From Eledone cirrhosa (Eukaryota), in the NCBI GenBank assembly GCA_964016885.1, contig OZ024741.1, forward strand, positions 239,630,001-239,694,000: DNA of 64,000 bases. The letters are read 5' to 3'. Below are positions 6,077-64,000 of this stretch, piece after piece (the first letter of the stretch is position 1; each line of letters opens with the position of its first letter). A program made the position numbers and the translations under genes. The notes under the pieces were generated by a model that was not told where the DNA came from, ran no database searches, and was given only the letters and a program-made list of their open reading frames with translations.

Positions 6077-6195
6077 TTAACTGGCAACAACATCTGGTGT
6101 TGAAGGTAACTGTCTCTCTGGAGGTTTCACATATCTGTCTTGGTAATGGTCTCTCTCATTGTTGCTTGACACATCAGGTGGGACACCATAGATTC
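6077..6195 (-). CDS. Pcdh: Gene 2 terminal cytoplasmic exon (GIYGVPPDVSSNNERDHYQDRYVKPPERQLPSTPDVVAS*)
   Basis: TTTCAG acceptor, phase 1 matches previous exon, open to TAA; repeated in each unit. Confidence 0.88.
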
Positions 6196-6545
6196 CTGAA
6201 ACAAGTACATCAACACAACTTACCATTTAGTTCACATAGATAGATAATGGTTATTTTATTGATAATAATCATCAATTGTTTATCCACTACATCCACTGAA
6301 CTAAGAGAGAAAATAACAATCATATATTTACATCTTTACAATCTTAATAAACCACTAATTAGTTAAATAAAATAATATCTTTAGTAATTTAAAATCAATA
6401 TTAAATTACTTTAACTTTTAGTCTTTGAATTGACAACATGAGTAAAAATAATAAATCGCGGAAGTCACACAGTGCTTCGTTTAGGACTTACTCTGATATG
6501 TAACACTGAGAAAGACCATAAACATTTATGAAGATATTGTTTTAC

Positions 6546-6696
6546 CTGACATTGCTGGTATTTCTTCATACTGTCTACTTGACCTTTCACTCCAGCATTG
6601 TCCACTGCTCTTACGACTGGTCAATGTATCAGTGGGATAGTTAGAAGATGGTCTGTTGTCTCCATAAGATGTCACCTCTATTGGTTGACTGTATTT
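6546..6696 (-). CDS. Pcdh: Gene 2 first cytoplasmic exon (151 nt; KYSQPIEVTSYGDNRP...QYEEIPAMS)
   Basis: CAG acceptor and CAG|GTAAAA donor, phase 0 in and phase 1 out, open frame, conserved in each unit. Confidence 0.9.
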
Positions 6697-6723
6697 CTGA
6701 TGGAAAATATAGTTACAAGATAA

Positions 6724-7237: not shown

Positions 7238-8477
7238 ATGAGGGTCAGCTGAAAGGTTCATCGGTTGACTAAGATACTCTCATGGTGTGTGACCAAATGA
7301 GTTTTATTTTTCAACATAGTCTACCTTGTATTCCACACACTTCTTTCATTAGTTTTGCTGTTCTTCGATCCCATTGATGAAGAAGCTTTCATATTGTTGG
7401 TAAAAAAAATTCAACAGCAGATATGACATTATCACTGTGAAACTGGTTCTCAGCCAAGTGTTTTTCGTGTCAGGGAACAGATGATAATCAGATGGGTAAA
7501 ATCATGAGAATAAGGAGGGTGATCAATTTGTTCAAATCCAGTCATGCACAGCAGCCATTGAAACCAAGGACGTGTGTTGGAGCATTGTCCTAATGAAGCA
7601 AGAACCCTTTCATCAGATTTCCTGGGCATATGGTCTTGATTGACTTTCACAACTGCCTTAGCGAGATGGCATAATACTCTCCATTGATGGTGTGGCTCTT
7701 TTGAAGATAACCAATAAACAATGTCTTTTGCATCCCAAATGTCTGAGGGTATCACCTTCCTTGCAGATGAAATGACCTTGGCCTTCTTTGGACAACTGTT
7801 TCCACTACATGGATTGTCTCTTTGTCTGGCTCAAAGTGAAGAACCCAACCCTCATCCTGGGTTAGGAAACATTCAAGAGAACCAGCTGGATCTGCCTCAA
7901 ATAATGTCAGATTTCCCTGTGATGTGATCAACTTGGTGTGCTTTTGATCAGGTGTCAGAAAACATGGTACTCATCAAGCAGAATAGCAAGTTCTTTGTGC
8001 AGAATATTCTCAACTCTCACACGGGACATAGTAATAGTATTGGGTATTTGATTAATAGTCAATTGCTCTCGTCCATCACCATGCAGTGAACACGATCAAT
8101 GTTTTCCTCAGTTGCAGGACTTCCAGAACTTGTGTCATCTTCAAAGCTCTCCCCTCCCGCCTAAATTCAGTTGCCCACTTTTACAATGTTGATAAAGCTG
8201 GAGCATTATCCCTAATGTAGCAACCACGTTAGCATGAATGTCCTTGGAGGCTAAACGCTTTTTTTGCAGGTACTCGATAACACCGCGATGCCATATTTTG
8301 CACATTTTCAAGAGAAGTTGCTACTCATTGCTTTTGAAGTCTTCTTTGAAAAGGCAGTTTACATGGAAAGAAACAATGCAGTTATTAATAAGTGTCGAAA
8401 TTAATGCATGCAAGATTTCACAGCCCCAGAATCACTCCTTCACAATAAGCCCATGAACTGTTCAGCCCACGCTCATA
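7238..8477 (-). mobile_element. Decayed full-length mariner element in gene 2 intron
   Basis: ~1.24 kb with imperfect TIRs (TGAGGGTCAGCTGAAAGGTTCAT / ATGAACTGTTCAGCCCACGCTCA); transposase fragments KWATEFRR..EDDTSSGSP, WDAKDI, DHPPYSHD; many stops and frameshifts. Confidence 0.85.
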
Positions 8478-8709: not shown

Positions 8710-11061
8710 CTTCGTGGATTTTTGAAGAGATCTGTTCATTGTTGATGTCTTCCAGTCTTCAGGATAGTAATGACTTCTAGACTGACTATATCTGTCCGAT
8801 ATATCTCCTCGATTACCTGACATCACAGATACACTGTTGTTACCTTGATAGATCAACTGTCTCATCTCATTATGACATTGGTATGCCTGTTTCTCTTCTG
8901 TTGTTCTAGCTGAGTTATTTCTCACATTGTTACATCTCACAATACACAATGTTATAGAAACCACAATAGCTATAGATACTATCACAGCTGCTACTACAAT
9001 GATAATCAACAATGTTGCATCTATTGTGTTATCAGTTGGTACATGGACAGCTGTGAACATTGGTGATGTCTTGTTACTAACAGTCAGTGTTAAAGAGACA
9101 CTAGTTGTTGCTGACAGAACTGGAGTACCACTGTCTTTCACAACAAACTCCAGTTGATATGATCCGGCATCATTTTGGTAAACTGTACGAGAGTAAGATA
9201 AGACACCAGTGAATGAGTCCAGTTTAAATAACTGTCTCTCATTACCTGAAAGGATTTCATATCTGAGAAAAGCATTCATATGACTGTCTATATCAGAGGC
9301 TTTCAGAAGTGTGATGTCATTCTTACTTTGTGGATGATAGTGTATATCAAGAGTGAAAGGGTCAACACTAGGAAATGTAAAATATGGAACATTATCATTT
9401 TTATCTAATACTTCCACTTCAACATTCACTGTGTTATTTAGAGATGGTGTTCCATTGTCTTTGACAAAAACCTCAAAGTCATAGAAATCTCTGTGTTCTC
9501 TGTCTAAAGATTGGTTTGTTGAAATAAAGCCAGAGTTGATAATCTGGAATGGTAGACGATATTGGTGTTTATTTCTCAGATAATAACTTAATTCACCTCC
9601 CTTACCAACATCTGGATCTGTAGCATTGATAAAACCAATAGGGAAATTAGCTTTGTCATTCTCATAGGTAAGGAACTTGAATGTATCTTTGGTAAAGTGT
9701 GGTTTTACATCATTCACATCTAACACTTGTATTGAGAGATCTTTATCAGTTTTGAGAGGAGGTAATCCTTTATCTTGACAGGAGACAGTAAAGTGATAAT
9801 GTTCTTGTGTTTCTCTGTCTACTGCTTTCTTTAGAACTATTTTATATTCTTTAGATCCCATTGATTGGAGTTTGAATGTATCATGTTTGATATTACAGCT
9901 GACCTCTCCATTGTGTCCAACATCATTGTCAGTGACCATCACATATGCAATGAAACTACCAACTTTGATATCTTCCAGAATGGTAGCTGTGTCGTGATTC
10001 TCTGTAGAAATATAGTTGACATCAATATTTGGAGGATTGTTATGTTGGTTGATAACCTTAACCATAACAGTTGCTATGGAACTGAGAGGAGGGCTCCCTC
10101 CATCTTTTGCTTCAATGTATAATTTTAACGTGCTCTTAGTGTCAATTTCTAATGGTTTTATTAAGAATATTTTTCCAGTATTTTCATCAACACTAAAGTA
10201 TCCTTTCATCTTTTCTTCAGTTTTTGGACTAAAATAGAAAGACATTTTACCATTCCTACCAATATCTAAATCATTGGCAGATAACGTGACTACTGGAATA
10301 TTCTTTTTGTGCTTATGTTCTATAGAGACATTATAGATACTATGAGAAAATTGTGGTCTGTTGTCATTTTCATCTTCTACAGATATTTTAACATTTAAAA
10401 TACTTTGTTTTGGTGGAGTTCCTCCATCTTTAGCAATGACTTCAATATTGTAACTGTCTTTCTGTTCTCTGTCTAATCTAGCTTCTAAAATAATTTCTAA
10501 AGTTGAAATTCCATCTGCTCGTTTCAAAACTGTTAAAGAGAAATTGCCATCATCAGTTAATGTATACGTTATGAAACTGTTCTGATAACCAACATCTTTA
10601 TCCACTGCATTTTCTATTGACCTCTTGGTACCTTTACTATCAGTTTCGGAAAACTGTATATTTACTTGTTCAGTTGGAAACTCAGGTTGGTGGTCATTGA
10701 TGTCTTCTATTATGACTTTAATTTTTAATATCTTCATAAATGTCTTGGATTTGTGAACAGCCACTTTCACTATTTCAAAACATTCTTTCTCATAACTACA
10801 CACAGACTCAGCATCCAATGTCTGAACAGTGTACAGTTTACCTGTTTTTGTCACATTGAACAATTGTTCTCCCTTTTGTTGTAGTTGACTAAATGTAATT
10901 AAATCCTTATTCTTTAAGAAGGAGCTATCTGATGTCTGTAAGTCAGTAGCAATGTCCCCTACATAAGTATAGGGATTACTCTCTTCTTTAACATGGTATG
11001 TGATATATTCACTTAGATAACAGTGGAAGAAAGTCAGTAAAATACACAGAAACAACAACAT
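8710..11061 (-). CDS. Pcdh: Protocadherin gene 2, large coding exon; spliced product ~873 aa
   Basis: Six cadherin repeats plus TM; donor AAG|GTAAAA at 8710/8709; acceptor at 11119/11118. Confidence 0.95.
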
Positions 11062-14106: not shown

Positions 14107-14225
14107 TTAACTAGCAACAACATCTGGTGTTGAAGGTAACTGTCTCTCTGGAGGTTTCACATATCTGTCTTGGTAATGGTCTCTCTCATTGTTGCTTGAC
14201 ACATCAGGTGGGACACCATAGATTC
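14107..14225 (-). CDS. Pcdh: Gene 3 terminal cytoplasmic exon
   Basis: Paralog of 6077-6195 with intact acceptor and TAA. Confidence 0.88.
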
Positions 14226-14431: not shown

Positions 14432-14582
14432 CTGACATTGCAGGTATTTCTTCATACTGTCTACTTGACCTTTCACTCCAGCACTGTCCACTACTCTTAC
14501 AACTAGTCAATGTATCAGTGGGATAGTTAGAAGATGGTCTGTTGTCTCCATAAGATGTCACCTCTATAGGCTGGCTGTATTT
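14432..14582 (-). CDS. Pcdh: Gene 3 first cytoplasmic exon (151 nt)
   Basis: Paralog of 6546-6696; CAGCAG acceptor, GTAAAA donor. Confidence 0.9.
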
Positions 14583-15046
14583 CTGCTGTAAAATATAATT
14601 AGAGCGTATAAAGATATTTATAACAATGTACCTAAAATTGTAAACTGTAAAAATATTGGACCATTATCTACAAAAATATAAATTGTATAAAACTTTCTAT
14701 CAGACCACTTTCAATCATACCACAGAAAATGTATCCAGGACAAGTTTATAGCTCACTCAAACTATTTCTTTTTTTAGGCCTACCTATATTGATCTTATGT
14801 TCATATTGTTCATGAGTTTGTAATACACACGCGTAGTCATACTAAGCCAAGTATTTGGAAGGTTTCTTTACAGAAAGGCAATTTACAGAGCCACCTAAAT
14901 TCCACAAAGTTAGCTAAGATCATACTGACATATAGTATAACAGCTTGGCAAAAAACAAAAAGAGTGAGAGACAGCAATGTATGAATACATACATGATTCT
15001 TCTACTATTGACCTTCTTAGATATACATTTACCAACAAAAATGGGA

Positions 15047-20965: not shown

Positions 20966-21084
20966 TTAACTGGCAACAACATCTGGTGTTGAAGGTAACT
21001 GTCTCTCTGGAGGTTTCACATATCTGTCTTGGTAATGGTCTCTCTCATTGTTGCTTGACACATCAGGTGGAACACCATAGATTC
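20966..21084 (-). CDS. Pcdh: Gene 4 terminal cytoplasmic exon
   Basis: Paralog of 6077-6195, intact. Confidence 0.88.
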
Positions 21085-21428: not shown

Positions 21429-21579
21429 CTGACATTGCTGGTATTTCTTCATACTGTCTACTTGACCTTTCACTCCAGCATTGTCCACTGCTCTTATGAC
21501 TAGTCAATGTATCAGTGGGATAGTTAGAAGATGGTCTGTTGTCTCCATAAGATGTCACCTCTATTGGTTGACTGTATTT
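21429..21579 (-). CDS. Pcdh: Gene 4 first cytoplasmic exon (151 nt)
   Basis: Paralog of 6546-6696 with intact splice sites. Confidence 0.9.
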
Positions 21580-29157: not shown

Positions 29158-29276
29158 TTAACTGGCAACAACATCTGGTGTTGAAGGTAACTGTCTCTCT
29201 GGAGGTTTCACATATCTGTCTTGGTAATGGTCTCTCTCATTGTTGCTTGATACATCAGGTGGGACACCATAGATTC
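29158..29276 (-). CDS. Pcdh: Gene 5 terminal cytoplasmic exon
   Basis: Paralog of 6077-6195, intact. Confidence 0.88.
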
Positions 29277-29620: not shown

Positions 29621-29771
29621 CTGACATTGCTGGTATTTCTTCATACTGTCTACTTGACCTTTCACTCCAGCATTGTCCACTGCTCTTATGACTAGTCAAT
29701 GTATCAGTGGGATAGTTAGAAGATGGTCTGTTGTCTCCATAAGATGTCACCTCTATTGGTTGACTGTATTT
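29621..29771 (-). CDS. Pcdh: Gene 5 first cytoplasmic exon (151 nt)
   Basis: Paralog of 6546-6696 with intact splice sites. Confidence 0.9.
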
Positions 29772-39017: not shown

Positions 39018-39168
39018 CAGGCATTGCAGGTATTTCTTCATACCATCTACTTGACCTTTCACTCAAGCACTGTCCACTATTCTTATGACTGGTCAATGTA
39101 TCAGTGGGATAGTTAGAGGATGGTCTGTTGTCTCCATAAGAAGTCATCTCCCCTGGTTGACTGTATTT
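39018..39168 (-). pseudogene. First cytoplasmic exon of the sixth Pcdh (open, splice sites intact)
   Basis: 151 nt; KYSQPGEMTSYGDNRP...RWYEEIPAMP; TAGCAG acceptor, GTAAAA donor. Confidence 0.85.
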
Positions 39169-39589
39169 CTGCTAAAACATAATAGCATTTTGTGGAGCAT
39201 AAATGATTTTCAAAAATTGTCAATAAAAAAAGGTATGCTTCAAATTTCAAAAGTTTAGTCCAAATAGTTATACCACTGTTATAATATAGAACACAAATAG
39301 AATGATTCTCAAGATATTTTTCTATCATAACACTATAAGAGAATTTTTTAAAACTTGGATTTAAAATGCTTTAGAGAAAACCACCAAATGTAGCATTCTC
39401 TAATCTTTTGAAACACAAAAGTCTTTTTATATTGGAGAGCATTGTGAAAGACAGTTCCTAAGGAAATAAGGAATGGCTTGTAAGAGCCATAGTAGCCATG
39501 TACAGAGGTGCAGTCAGCAATGAGTTCAGCTACGAATTTAGTGAATACATAGGTATCTATCAAGTTTCTGTTCTCATCACCCTTCTGTT

Positions 39590-58752: not shown

Positions 58753-59405
58753 GAGGTGTGTCAGAAAAAATATCAGGCCTTAGTGTGCTGTATGAGCTAT
58801 GAGTGGGGTAGGGATTCGCGGGTTGCGTCACCACGTGATGTAATACTCGGGAAGTATATAACTGTGATCTTAGCTCTTTGCAGCCATTCTATGTTTTTTC
58901 ACATGCTTTTGTTAACAGCTCCTCAATTTTAGGCTGACGAACGAGCAATGAACCAGCATGATGTTTCTGACTGAGAAAACACCGTTAGAATCACTCGGAA
59001 TACTGTAGCAAGTGTACGGAGATAATACGATGTCGCGTTCGCGGGTTTCCGAGTGGCACAAAAGGTTCAAAGACGACCCCAGGAACTGAAGGCTTACAAC
59101 GAGCAGGACTGATGCCAACGTTGAATGCGTGATGCAGATGGTGCGTGGCGATCGTTAACTGAGTGTTCGACTGATCGCAAGTGAGCTGGCAATGAACCGT
59201 GACAGCGTTTGGAAGATTATCACCAAAGATTTGGGCATGTGGAAGATCTGCGAGAAGATGATGCCGAAGTTGCTGAACGTTGACCTGAAGCAGTGTATGC
59301 AGGTGTGTCAGGACATCCTGGAGCGTCATAAAACTGAACCAGACTTGTTGGGGAGAGTCATGACCGGTGATAGATCAAGGATCTTCGAGTACGACCCGAA
59401 GACCA
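58751..59405 (+). mobile_element. 5' half of a second mariner family
   Basis: TIR-like CGAGGTGTGTCAGAAAAAATATC; MSRSRVSEWHKRFK, IITKDLGMWKICEKMMPKLL (WVPKLL-like), VMTGDRSRIFEYDP (TGDE-like). Confidence 0.85.
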
Positions 59406-59852
59406 GGTGCCTGAGACACCAAGAGGGCCGTGACGATGGAGCTGTGGAGATTCCCCCACACGAATCCTTAGGTTCTTCATATTTTACATTCATTATATCG
59501 TGCACCCACTCGAAATTGTTTTCCGAATGCACTGTTATCTCAACATCAGGACATATTTGTCAATTCAGAATACGCCATAACGTCAGGACGATACGTCGTT
59601 ATAGCAATATGGATCGGAAATCAGAGTGCTTACTTAAAATACTCCTGTACTTTTCAGTCATTGGCACATTGCAGGCATCTAGGTACCGGCTTTCTCTTGT
59701 TTACACTCATGGGTTTTCCTTTCCCGATATCTTTATATACACCAGGAGGTCGACATATCATTGACATAACTGAAGAGTCCGCTCTACTCTTTGGCAAGTT
59801 TTCTCCAGATAGATACCCTTCCTATCACCAATCACAGGATGTACTGTGCACA

Positions 59853-61559: not shown

Positions 61560-64000
61560 ACTTGTCGAGTGCTTTTATATCAGTTATAAATATTTACTAG
61601 TTGTAACCCAACAATTTAAATATAACTTTCCATGTACCTTGCTCCATACTGTTGAGCGCTTTATATTATAACTGGAAAAATGGAATTCTTTAAGATTACT
61701 TCCTCTTTAAAAGACATACCTCTACCTAGAAACAAAGACTTTATAAAACAATTAATAGATAAATCTGACTCTTTTATAAGGAGAATCAGGTGGCGAGCAT
61801 TCCACTTTGATAAATCTAATATAAATGAAAATGTCTCGGACTTAAACAAAGTTTTCAAATCTAAAAGAAATCCACCCCCTAACAAACTTTTATCTGACTT
61901 TGAAAACGATATAATTTCTATCATACAAGGGGTCAAATTCAAGAGAAACTTCAAAGGCCAGGAATATCTGAAAGGCATTAAGGATAATATTGAGAGCTTA
62001 GAGAAAACTGAGAAGATCTTGGTGAAATCTGACAAGACCAACAACCTCTATGGGGTGCAGAAAGACATGTATAATGGCCTCATACTGAAGGAACTGAGGA
62101 AAAAGTACAAGGTAGCAGATAAGGCCGAGCTTGAGAAAATGAATGTCGAAGCATCTTGTATAATGCACGAGTTGGAAATTGAGAACAGAACACAACCTTT
62201 CGTGCCCAGGAAACCGAAGATCAATATGAAAGATCACAAGAGGAATTTTGAAAATGACTTGCCAGTTAGATTGATCGCACCATCAAAATCGGACCTGGGC
62301 AAATTAAGCAAAAACATTCTTGACAGGGTGATACAGCAAATTAAGAACTTGGATTGTTTATCTAACCTGAGCTTGTGGAAGGGAACTGGAGAGGTTGTTG
62401 AGTGGTTTAAGCAAATTAAATATAACAATAATAATAAGTTTATTCAACTTGATATTGCTAACTATTATTCTTCTATTACCCCTAATCTACTAAATAAGGC
62501 ACTAAATTACGCATTCAAACATACTGACCTAACTAGCAATGAAATGCATATTATATTATCGGCTAGGAAAACTTTGATAGAATTTAATGACCAACTATGG
62601 ACCAGAGCAGATAGAGATAGCAATTTTGACATTACTATGGGATCATCCGACTCAGCTCAGGTAACTGACCTTGTGGGCTTATTTTTAATCAATTCGCTAC
62701 ATAGGAAAATACCTGGTACTACTGGAGGTTTATATAGAGATGACATGCTTTTACTTATTGATAATAATAACTCTGAACTAAATAGAAAATGTAAACAAAT
62801 TACACAATTTTTTAATTACTTTAATCTTAAAATAGAAATTGAGAACAACCATAGAATAGTCAATTTCCTAGATATAACATTAAATCTCAACACATGTCTT
62901 CACTATCCTTTTCACAAGTTGAATGAAAACTTAAACTATGTCAACTTTAACTCTAACCACCCCCAGATCTGTCAAAAACACTATAGTAAACTCTGTTCAA
63001 AAATGTATTTCTAGGATCTCGTCGAATAGAAAGATTTTCGACGAAAAAGCCCAATACTACAATGAAGCATTAGCTAGAGCAGGATATGCTGATAAGATTA
63101 TGTACATAGATAATGATAGACAAACTAAACAAAATAACAACTATTTTAATTACGGCAACAACCTTAACAACTATAATAGAAAGCATTACAATAATTCCAA
63201 AGGCCAAAAAAGAAATAGAACTAGGAACATAATTTGGTTTGCCCCCCCCCCCCCCTTTCTCACTAAACATTAAAACCCACATCGCTAAACTATTTTTTAA
63301 AGCTCTTGATAATCGCTTCCCTAGAACACATAGGTATCACTCAATTTTCAATAGACATACTATAAAATTAACCTACTCATCCACCAAAAATTTAGCATAA
63401 ATAATATACAAGTTAACAAATGTAACTGTAGAGATAGATCTAAATGTCCGTTAGATAACAACTGCTTAGTTAAAAATATAGTATACAATTGTAATGTTAA
63501 AACTGACTCTAATTCTTTTAACTACGTCGGTTCCACATCGACGGAATTTAAACTTCGCTATAATAACCACAAGAATTCTTTCACAGATCCAAGCAAAAAA
63601 TCTTCAACGGCACTATCAGGCGTACTCTGGCAACTTAAGCTAGATAACGTTAGATATTCGACGGCTTGGAATATAGTCTCAAGAGGGATTCCTTTTAATT
63701 CATCCTCTGAGACATGTGACCTCTGCGCAGAGGAGATATTCTTTATACTAAAATCTAAAAATTCCCTTAATCTACGGACAAATTTATTCAGTTGCTGCAA
63801 ACATAGATTAAACTCAACGTTTAAATATAAATTTAAATTTAAAATGTAGTATATTTAGTTTGATTTATAATTATATGGGAAACTAGCCGATAAATCTTTC
63901 GATTTCTTCTTTTTATTCTTTTTATTTTTTTATTTTTATTTTTATTTAAACATTCTTCATGAAAAATTAAGCTACCCTAAAAGTTGATGCTCCAAATATT
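61560..64000 (+). mobile_element. Penelope-like retroelement (RT plus GIY-YIG endonuclease), lightly disrupted
   Basis: 444-aa ORF 61680-63014 (RRIRWRAFHF, KSDKTNN, VRLIAP, LDIANYYSSI, TMGSSDSAQV, YRDD, NFLDITL); after frameshifts CNCRDRSKCPLDNNCLVKNIVY..YVGSTSTEFKLRYNNHKNSF. Confidence 0.9.

Follow-up and report, generated by a model that had tools for sequence, protein, structure and literature searches.

A conserved tyrosine motif and class I SH3 ligands as a candidate Src-family docking site in octopod protocadherin tails

The protocadherins of cephalopods have expanded independently of those of vertebrates, and a protocadherin array of Eledone cirrhosa raises the question of which proteins their cytoplasmic tails engage inside the cell. 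In the available sections of Styfhals 2019 (PMC6339937), the intracellular partners of cephalopod protocadherins are described as unexplored and vertebrate tail motifs as absent; eight octopus motifs are given in the accessible portion of its Table S2, with neither YEEI nor an SH3 ligand among them. The first-pass annotation of the present locus, a stretch of 64,000 nucleotides (referred to as the window), had proposed that these tails unite an SH2 ligand (YEEIP) and a class I SH3 ligand (RQLPSTP) in a shared output module for Src-family kinases. This interpretation is partly supported by the analysis presented here, which offers a first testable guess at intracellular signalling by octopus protocadherins.

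On the reverse strand of the window, the first exons of five protocadherin genes are intact and one copy is broken (Table 1). Gene 2 comprises three coding exons joined in an open frame of 873 amino acids, with Pfam Cadherin matches in six stretches (six cadherin repeats), a single transmembrane segment and a cytoplasmic tail. The claimed occurrence of both motifs in the spliced tail was reproduced, YEEIP starting at residue 827 and RQLPSTP at residue 862, with the proposed spacing of 35 residues and at the proposed reverse-strand positions, and each of genes 2-5 contains both motifs in its own tail exons. These genes are tandem same-strand multi-exon full-gene copies, each with its own exons 2 and 3 and without shared constant exons; the tail exons of gene 1 are located immediately outside the window start, where the same exon 3 recurs (L029). 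Judged by six repeats, a single transmembrane segment and tandem full-gene copies, genes 2-5 are clustered protocadherins of the coleoid type. Among public sequences, Argonauta and Octopus protocadherins are closest (92-93% identity over residues 560-784), and the cluster is therefore an octopod one. No Pfam family was detected for exon 2, exon 3 or four other tails, and a search of the PDB with exon 3 gave no match.

Table 1. Protocadherin features in the window
Feature	Position	Strand	Remarks
Gene 2 coding exon 1	8710..11061	-	Signal peptide, six cadherin repeats, transmembrane segment, start of tail; GT donor 8709, phase 0
Gene 2 exon 2	6546..6696	-	151 nt, tail, phase 1 at end
Gene 2 YEEIP	6556..6570	-	Residues 827-831; candidate phosphotyrosine/SH2 site
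Gene 2 exon 3, coding portion including stop codon	6077..6195	-	
Gene 2 YVKP	6122..6133	-	Conserved YxxP tyrosine motif immediately ahead of SH3 ligand
Gene 2 RQLPSTP	6095..6115	-	Residues 862-868; class I SH3-ligand consensus
Gene 3 exon 2	14432..14582	-	YEEIP at 14442-14456
Gene 3 exon 3	14107..14225	-	RQLPSTP at 14125-14145
Gene 4 exon 2	21429..21579	-	YEEIP at 21439-21453
Gene 4 exon 3	20966..21084	-	RQLPSTP at 20984-21004
Gene 5 exon 2	29621..29771	-	YEEIP at 29631-29645
Gene 5 exon 3	29158..29276	-	RQLPSTP at 29176-29196
Broken gene 6 exon 2	39018..39168	-	YEEIP kept at 39028-39042; no exon 3 found

Sequences resembling mobile elements also occur in the window. Degenerate and repeated transposon sequence of high contig depth, which we take to be mariner-like, occurs in intron 1 of gene 2 (~7250-8450) and at 59159-59764, and the reverse-transcriptase-like and GIY-YIG-like ORFs at 61656-63849 probably represent a Penelope-type retroelement.

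A processed retrocopy, transcript contigs of relatives and public gene models agree that the two small tail exons are spliced as originally modelled. The retrocopy (L031; contig C1 of this genome) could be aligned over 470 nt to the modelled cDNA at 87% identity and crosses both junctions. It consists of the 3' end of the subfamily minus both introns (G000:C1 ~225,096,900-225,097,400) and has lost RQLPSTP via a small deletion; a further pair of shorter 3' copies (L032, L033) resides on C1 and C28. The species behind the transcript-contig runs are relatives (6-7% shared words), X21 alone being recorded as RNA. Four of eight runs (X1, X4, X15, X13) displayed the exact exon 2/3 GT..AG join, while in the remaining four the same exon 2 donor was spliced to exon 3 of a paralog. 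The exon 1/2 join was seen in three of the four runs covering it and is 3 nt (one codon) longer there, which is consistent with NAGNAG acceptor use. Within the window, the exon 2 acceptor is a NAGNAG in genes 3 and 6, genes 2, 4 and 5 having just one AG (6697-6702, 14583-14588, 39169-39174), corresponding to tails that include or lack one Gln. This tail end is shared by the 33 closest public models, with YEEIP in all 33 and the class I motif in 31.

Copy number within the window was ruled out as evidence of selection. At least 44 matches to exon 2 at >=88% identity are present in the genome, at least 43 of them within one 400-kb sub-array (C2:239.28-239.67 Mb), and the near-identical in-window copies are therefore not independent. 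The diverged sixth copy does keep YEEIP, as had been pointed out, but fails as an argument for conservation: its exon 1 is a remnant with a deletion and a frameshift, an exon 3 was not detectable, and exon 2 is 88% identical over its entire length, so that YEEIP in this broken gene is no evidence of selection. That the motifs occur beyond chance is evident from distant paralogs and not from the in-window copies.

For the comparison of distant paralogs, 172 octopod proteins were pooled and resolved into 55 tail clusters of <50% identity, of which five with tails <125 aa, all devoid of either motif, were left out of the motif counts. The pattern Y[ED][ET][IL] was detected in 35 of the resulting 50 clusters (shuffles: mean 0.59, maximum 5), a count not to be read as a probability against the shuffles, since the search patterns were picked after the tails had been seen and the clusters share descent. 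In a pattern-free test, YEELP emerged as the top five-column window among 176 alignment columns (0.65 versus a median of 0.32) and outranked juxtamembrane CIVRR. The tyrosine motif is thus better conserved than its flanks, YEE[IL]P being the best-conserved window of the distant tails, and the SH2-ligand consensus pY-E-E-I is conserved above background in octopod tails. A first set of 120 proteins gave a similar picture, with the tyrosine motif in 22 and the class I motif in 9 of 34 clusters. The motif profile is characterized by E at +1 (34/35), I/L at +3 (35/35, imposed by the pattern) and P at +4 (26/35).

Such conservation could in principle reside at the DNA or RNA level, with a purine-rich exonic enhancer of splicing close to the donor of exon 2 and gene conversion maintaining the motif without any protein function. 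The motif is indeed near the donor in most paralogs, those of the same genome use TAT in 11/11 and GAA in 19/22 cases, TAT makes up 25/34 of the Tyr codons in exon 1, and the 43 sub-array copies of exon 2 are near-identical; still, GAA use is near background (32/44), the motif persists in paralogs <50% identical and thus beyond the reach of conversion, and the SH3 motif is left unexplained, which together render a purely nucleotide-level origin highly improbable. Synonymous variants (GAG, ATC, ATT, CTT, CCT, CCG) occur at the motif codons and the substitutions are conservative amino acid swaps (I/L, E/D), both of which point to constraint at the protein level, with the uniform TAT leaving a splicing enhancer perhaps a minor role.

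Besides SH2 binding, tyrosine motifs of this type may serve intracellular traffic. YxxPhi sorting signals consist of a tyrosine followed at the third position by a bulky hydrophobic residue, and Y-type LC3-interacting motifs (LIR) usually possess an acidic run before the tyrosine. YEEI, YEEL and YETL could accordingly be sorting signals for the mu subunit of AP complexes or a Y-type LIR directing endocytosis or lysosomal traffic, with the proline motif being independent. All 35 instances fit Y-x-x-I/L, a fit imposed by the pattern to a consensus too loose to discriminate; 22 of the 50 clusters have the motif but no SH3 site, and an Atlas match to a cadherin Y-type LIR family scored 0.76-0.79, i.e., at lead level only. 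This assignment is nevertheless quite unlikely, as E at +1 and P at +4 exceed the needs of YxxPhi, the site is ~125-140 residues away from the membrane, and an acidic run ahead of the tyrosine is lacking, acidic residues accounting for 20 of 140 preceding positions against a background of 10.6%, without enrichment. The two roles are not mutually exclusive, since phosphorylation could switch the site between sorting and binding of SH2 domains. A function as ITAM, for which another YxxL/I has to follow the first at a distance of 6-8 residues, was rejected, the second Tyr being positioned at +10 and reading YGVP, YGGA or YGSP. In the gene 2 subfamily the tyrosine is preceded by SSRQ, which makes a poor substrate context for Src; acidic residues ahead of the tyrosine are favoured by kinases, according to the available part of PMC3514216.

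Two records of one Octopus vulgaris paralog, P0285 and P0391, differ in 852 residues solely by Tyr>Cys at the motif tyrosine (residue 843). P0285 is probably transcript-derived, and the change is one that A-to-I editing could produce, an allele or an error being also possible in this single case. Three further record pairs of this kind contain mostly non-A>G differences, and no T>C at the tyrosine codon was found among the differences listed for four transcript-contig runs, 40 of 266 differences being covered in another set of runs, in contigs that drop rare variants.

The class I consensus [RK]xLPxxP was detected in 18 of the 50 clusters (shuffles: 0.30, maximum 3); class II SH3 ligands, counted as a control, were dismissed as being at background (5/50 versus 4.7). 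Class I ligands occupy at least two non-homologous tail sites: KPLPxxP is found at the C-terminus of long-tailed, early-branching paralogs, one large subfamily has RRLPPVP or RKLPPVP at the end of exon 1 (L040), and RQLPSTP is encoded in exon 3 of the gene 2 subfamily. Homology between the exon 1 site and the C-terminal ones is excluded. An older RxLP is present at the exon 1 site in 11/50 clusters and was completed to the class I form, so that few changes were needed, and RQLPSTP may have been derived from the KPLP site through a four-residue insertion. A class I ligand is present in both of the subfamilies with most members in the sample (32 of 120 proteins each), and the turnover of its positions suggests that the ligand is functional. 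The expectation that RQLPSTP stands out from its flanks did not hold within exon 3, where the motif is present in 28 of 33 distinct variants and the adjoining block YQDRYVKPPE in 30-33 of 33; as this block is as constant as the class I motif, its YxxP site may matter as much.

Several further motifs neighbour these sites. A third tyrosine motif, DxYxxP, is located near the tail end (YVKP, YMKP, YLEP, YLQP; for gene 2 see Table 1; P0045, P0085, P0088) and is present also in lineages without a C-terminal SH3 ligand, and DYLEP units are repeated in cuttlefish P0501. NSFxxxxKPLP immediately precedes the C-terminal SH3 ligand in 12/50 clusters (shuffles: 0), among them the long-tailed P0093, P0098 and P0482; it is WIRS-like, but an enrichment of the strict WIRS pattern was rejected (4/50 versus 1.9). 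A DSG[HRN]G box a few residues ahead of the tyrosine site is shared by 5/50 octopod clusters and one cuttlefish-type tail (carriers: P0093, P0382, P0388, P0480, P0483, P0511) and presumably resembles the CM1 core of vertebrate delta-protocadherins. CM1 is reported absent in the accessible sections of Styfhals 2019 (PMC6339937).

The notion of a paired module shared throughout the family was not sustained, as 13 of the 50 clusters contain the two motifs together, versus 12.6 expected under independence. Next to the clusters with the tyrosine motif only, 13 proteins with RKLPPVP or RRLPPVP are devoid of it, and the class I motif was absent from the ~30-copy YEEIP sub-array of the same genome in two stretches examined and in the matching public models. 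In the gene 2 subfamily, the class I ligand at 35 residues from the tyrosine is within reach. In the reading preferred here, the tyrosine site would be an old, family-wide element and the SH3 site an optional add-on, lost and regained by individual lineages.

The age of the tyrosine site was addressed within the coleoids; a representative search beyond them yielded Fat/Dachsous cadherins and no usable tail of a non-cephalopod mollusc protocadherin. Four spliced cuttlefish-type tails were compared: P0501 (named Acanthosepion pharaonis), P0578, which clusters with an Acanthosepion pharaonis-named protein, and P0546 and P0511, grouped by tree. None of these four possesses a homologous tyrosine site or class I motif; P0578 has CKKIP at the homologous position, and in P0578 and P0546 YEEI or YQEI instead spans the exon 1/2 junction. 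In a FastTree phylogeny of the membrane-proximal ectodomain, the cuttlefish-type group nests, with moderate backbone support, among tyrosine-bearing octopod lineages. It is only suggested by this that the tyrosine site predates the octopod-decapodiform split and was lost later. Both motifs are absent from an unclustered seven-repeat octopus protocadherin (P0388) and from the one complete vertebrate tail retrieved, presumably of gamma-type (P0242).

The genome contains 35 SH2 matches, including Abl and one Grb2/Nck-like exon, and one SH2 exon is identical to a protein clustering with a named Octopus Src42A. SH3 and SH2 domains of octopod Src42A align to human Src, and the residues which we take to form the ligand pockets are kept except for one Thr>Ala exchange at the edge of the pY+3 pocket. 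Judged from these alignments, a cognate Src-family kinase with intact SH2 and SH3 pockets appears to exist in the organism. A complex prediction for octopod Src42A SH3-SH2 and a homologous tail, run with the tyrosine unphosphorylated and no alignments, scored 0.11 against a mark of 0.34, a value that speaks neither for nor against docking. SH2 exons that are presumably Csk-like (L044, L045, L046, L055) are duplicated on opposite strands at G000:C6 17.10-17.18 Mb.

According to the sections available, the middle-T pYEEIP peptide binds Src SH2 at 0.55-0.8 uM (PMC3514216), and choanoflagellate Src SH2 binds pYEEI at 140 nM, pYEEI binding being conserved to mammalian Src (PMC5876402). The Src specificity originally attributed to YEEIP does not follow, as on the arrays of the former study, as far as accessible, pYEEIP is also bound by Nck1, Fer, Brk and Shc1. 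Both motifs may hence be real SH2 and SH3 ligands for other partners, engaged separately or jointly, such as Nck/Dock, Abl, Crk, Fer, Shc or Tec-family kinases. This alternative, which we regard as somewhat unlikely, agrees with the array data, the number of SH2 matches in the genome, the statistically unpaired motifs and the equal conservation in exon 3 of YxxP, a typical Crk/Nck site; it is at odds with the enrichment of class I and not class II ligands, with the resemblance of the class I form to the Src-SH3 sites of FAK and p130Cas, and with E at +1 and +2 combined with I/L at +3, the Src optimum in the available part of PMC5876402. In FAK, RALPSIP is used with pY397 (PMC6528292), and in p130Cas, RPLPSPP with YDYVHL (PMC8542790), as described in the accessible portions of these articles.

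The preferred reading, held at about even odds (roughly 0.5), is that YEEIP and RQLPSTP of the octopod tail constitute a FAK/p130Cas-like two-point docking site for Src-family kinases, e.g., Src42A. The SH3 domain of the kinase would bind RQLPSTP weakly and constitutively, and receptor clustering on cell contact would lead to phosphorylation of the tyrosine. The SH2 domain could then clamp onto pYEEIP and thereby open the kinase in the manner of FAK or p130Cas, and neighbouring YxxP tyrosines might recruit Crk/Nck-type adaptors and thereby bring about actin remodelling.

A broader scenario, in which octopods evolved their own Src-activating protocadherin output by combining, in each of the two largest expanded subfamilies of the sample, the old YEE[IL]P with a class I ligand at a position of its own, is unlikely as a whole; it would entail sub-arrays differing in signalling strength as well as recognition, a site that Tyr>Cys editing could switch off, and convergence with Pcdh-alpha/Fyn. 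No published report of these tail motifs in cephalopod protocadherins was found in the available sections of PMC6339937, PMC9068888, PMC7339444, PMC7811963 and PMC10084454, with Albertin 2015 and Wang & Ragsdale 2017 outside this scope. The best-conserved tail stretch of octopods, a candidate kinase from the same genome and named point mutants (Y827F, P865A/P868A) make a direct test of docking possible.

Among known systems, FAK resembles the octopod tail in that ~30 residues separate its class I SH3 ligand from an SH2-type tyrosine (FAK 363-375, Y397), as far as described in the sources available. The order is reversed in the gene 2 subfamily, with the tyrosine first, and both order and spacing vary among paralogs. 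p130Cas/BCAR1 likewise, in its available descriptions, contains YxxP tyrosines in the same protein, there as YxxP repeats. Unlike in FAK and p130Cas, the octopod motifs are situated in a transmembrane adhesion receptor and represent a candidate site known from sequence. With hamster polyomavirus middle-T, the six residues QYEEIP are identical in the accessible parts of PMC3514216 and PMC5876402; in contrast to the viral site, the octopod site is without upstream acidic residues, cellular, multi-copy and evolutionarily conserved. Six repeats and tandem head-to-tail multi-exon full-gene copies are shared with the coleoid clustered protocadherins described in the available sections of PMC9068888 and PMC6339937. 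Vertebrate Pcdh-alpha/CNR binds Fyn, and clustered Pcdhs bind FAK/Pyk2, as cited in the accessible parts of PMC6339937, PMC7339444 and PMC7811963, and there too a diversified protocadherin cluster is linked, as proposed here for octopods, to non-receptor tyrosine kinases. Unlike the octopod genes, those of vertebrate Pcdhs splice to a shared constant tail, and the likeness to Pcdh-alpha/Fyn would be convergent and confined to the level of the partner. If Src binding holds true, two neuronal identity systems that arose independently would have converged on one kinase family. The fly self-recognition receptor Dscam has been proposed to engage the SH2/SH3 protein Dock/Nck via tyrosine and proline motifs; unlike the docking site proposed for octopods, it belongs to another receptor family, and its partner is an adaptor rather than a kinase.
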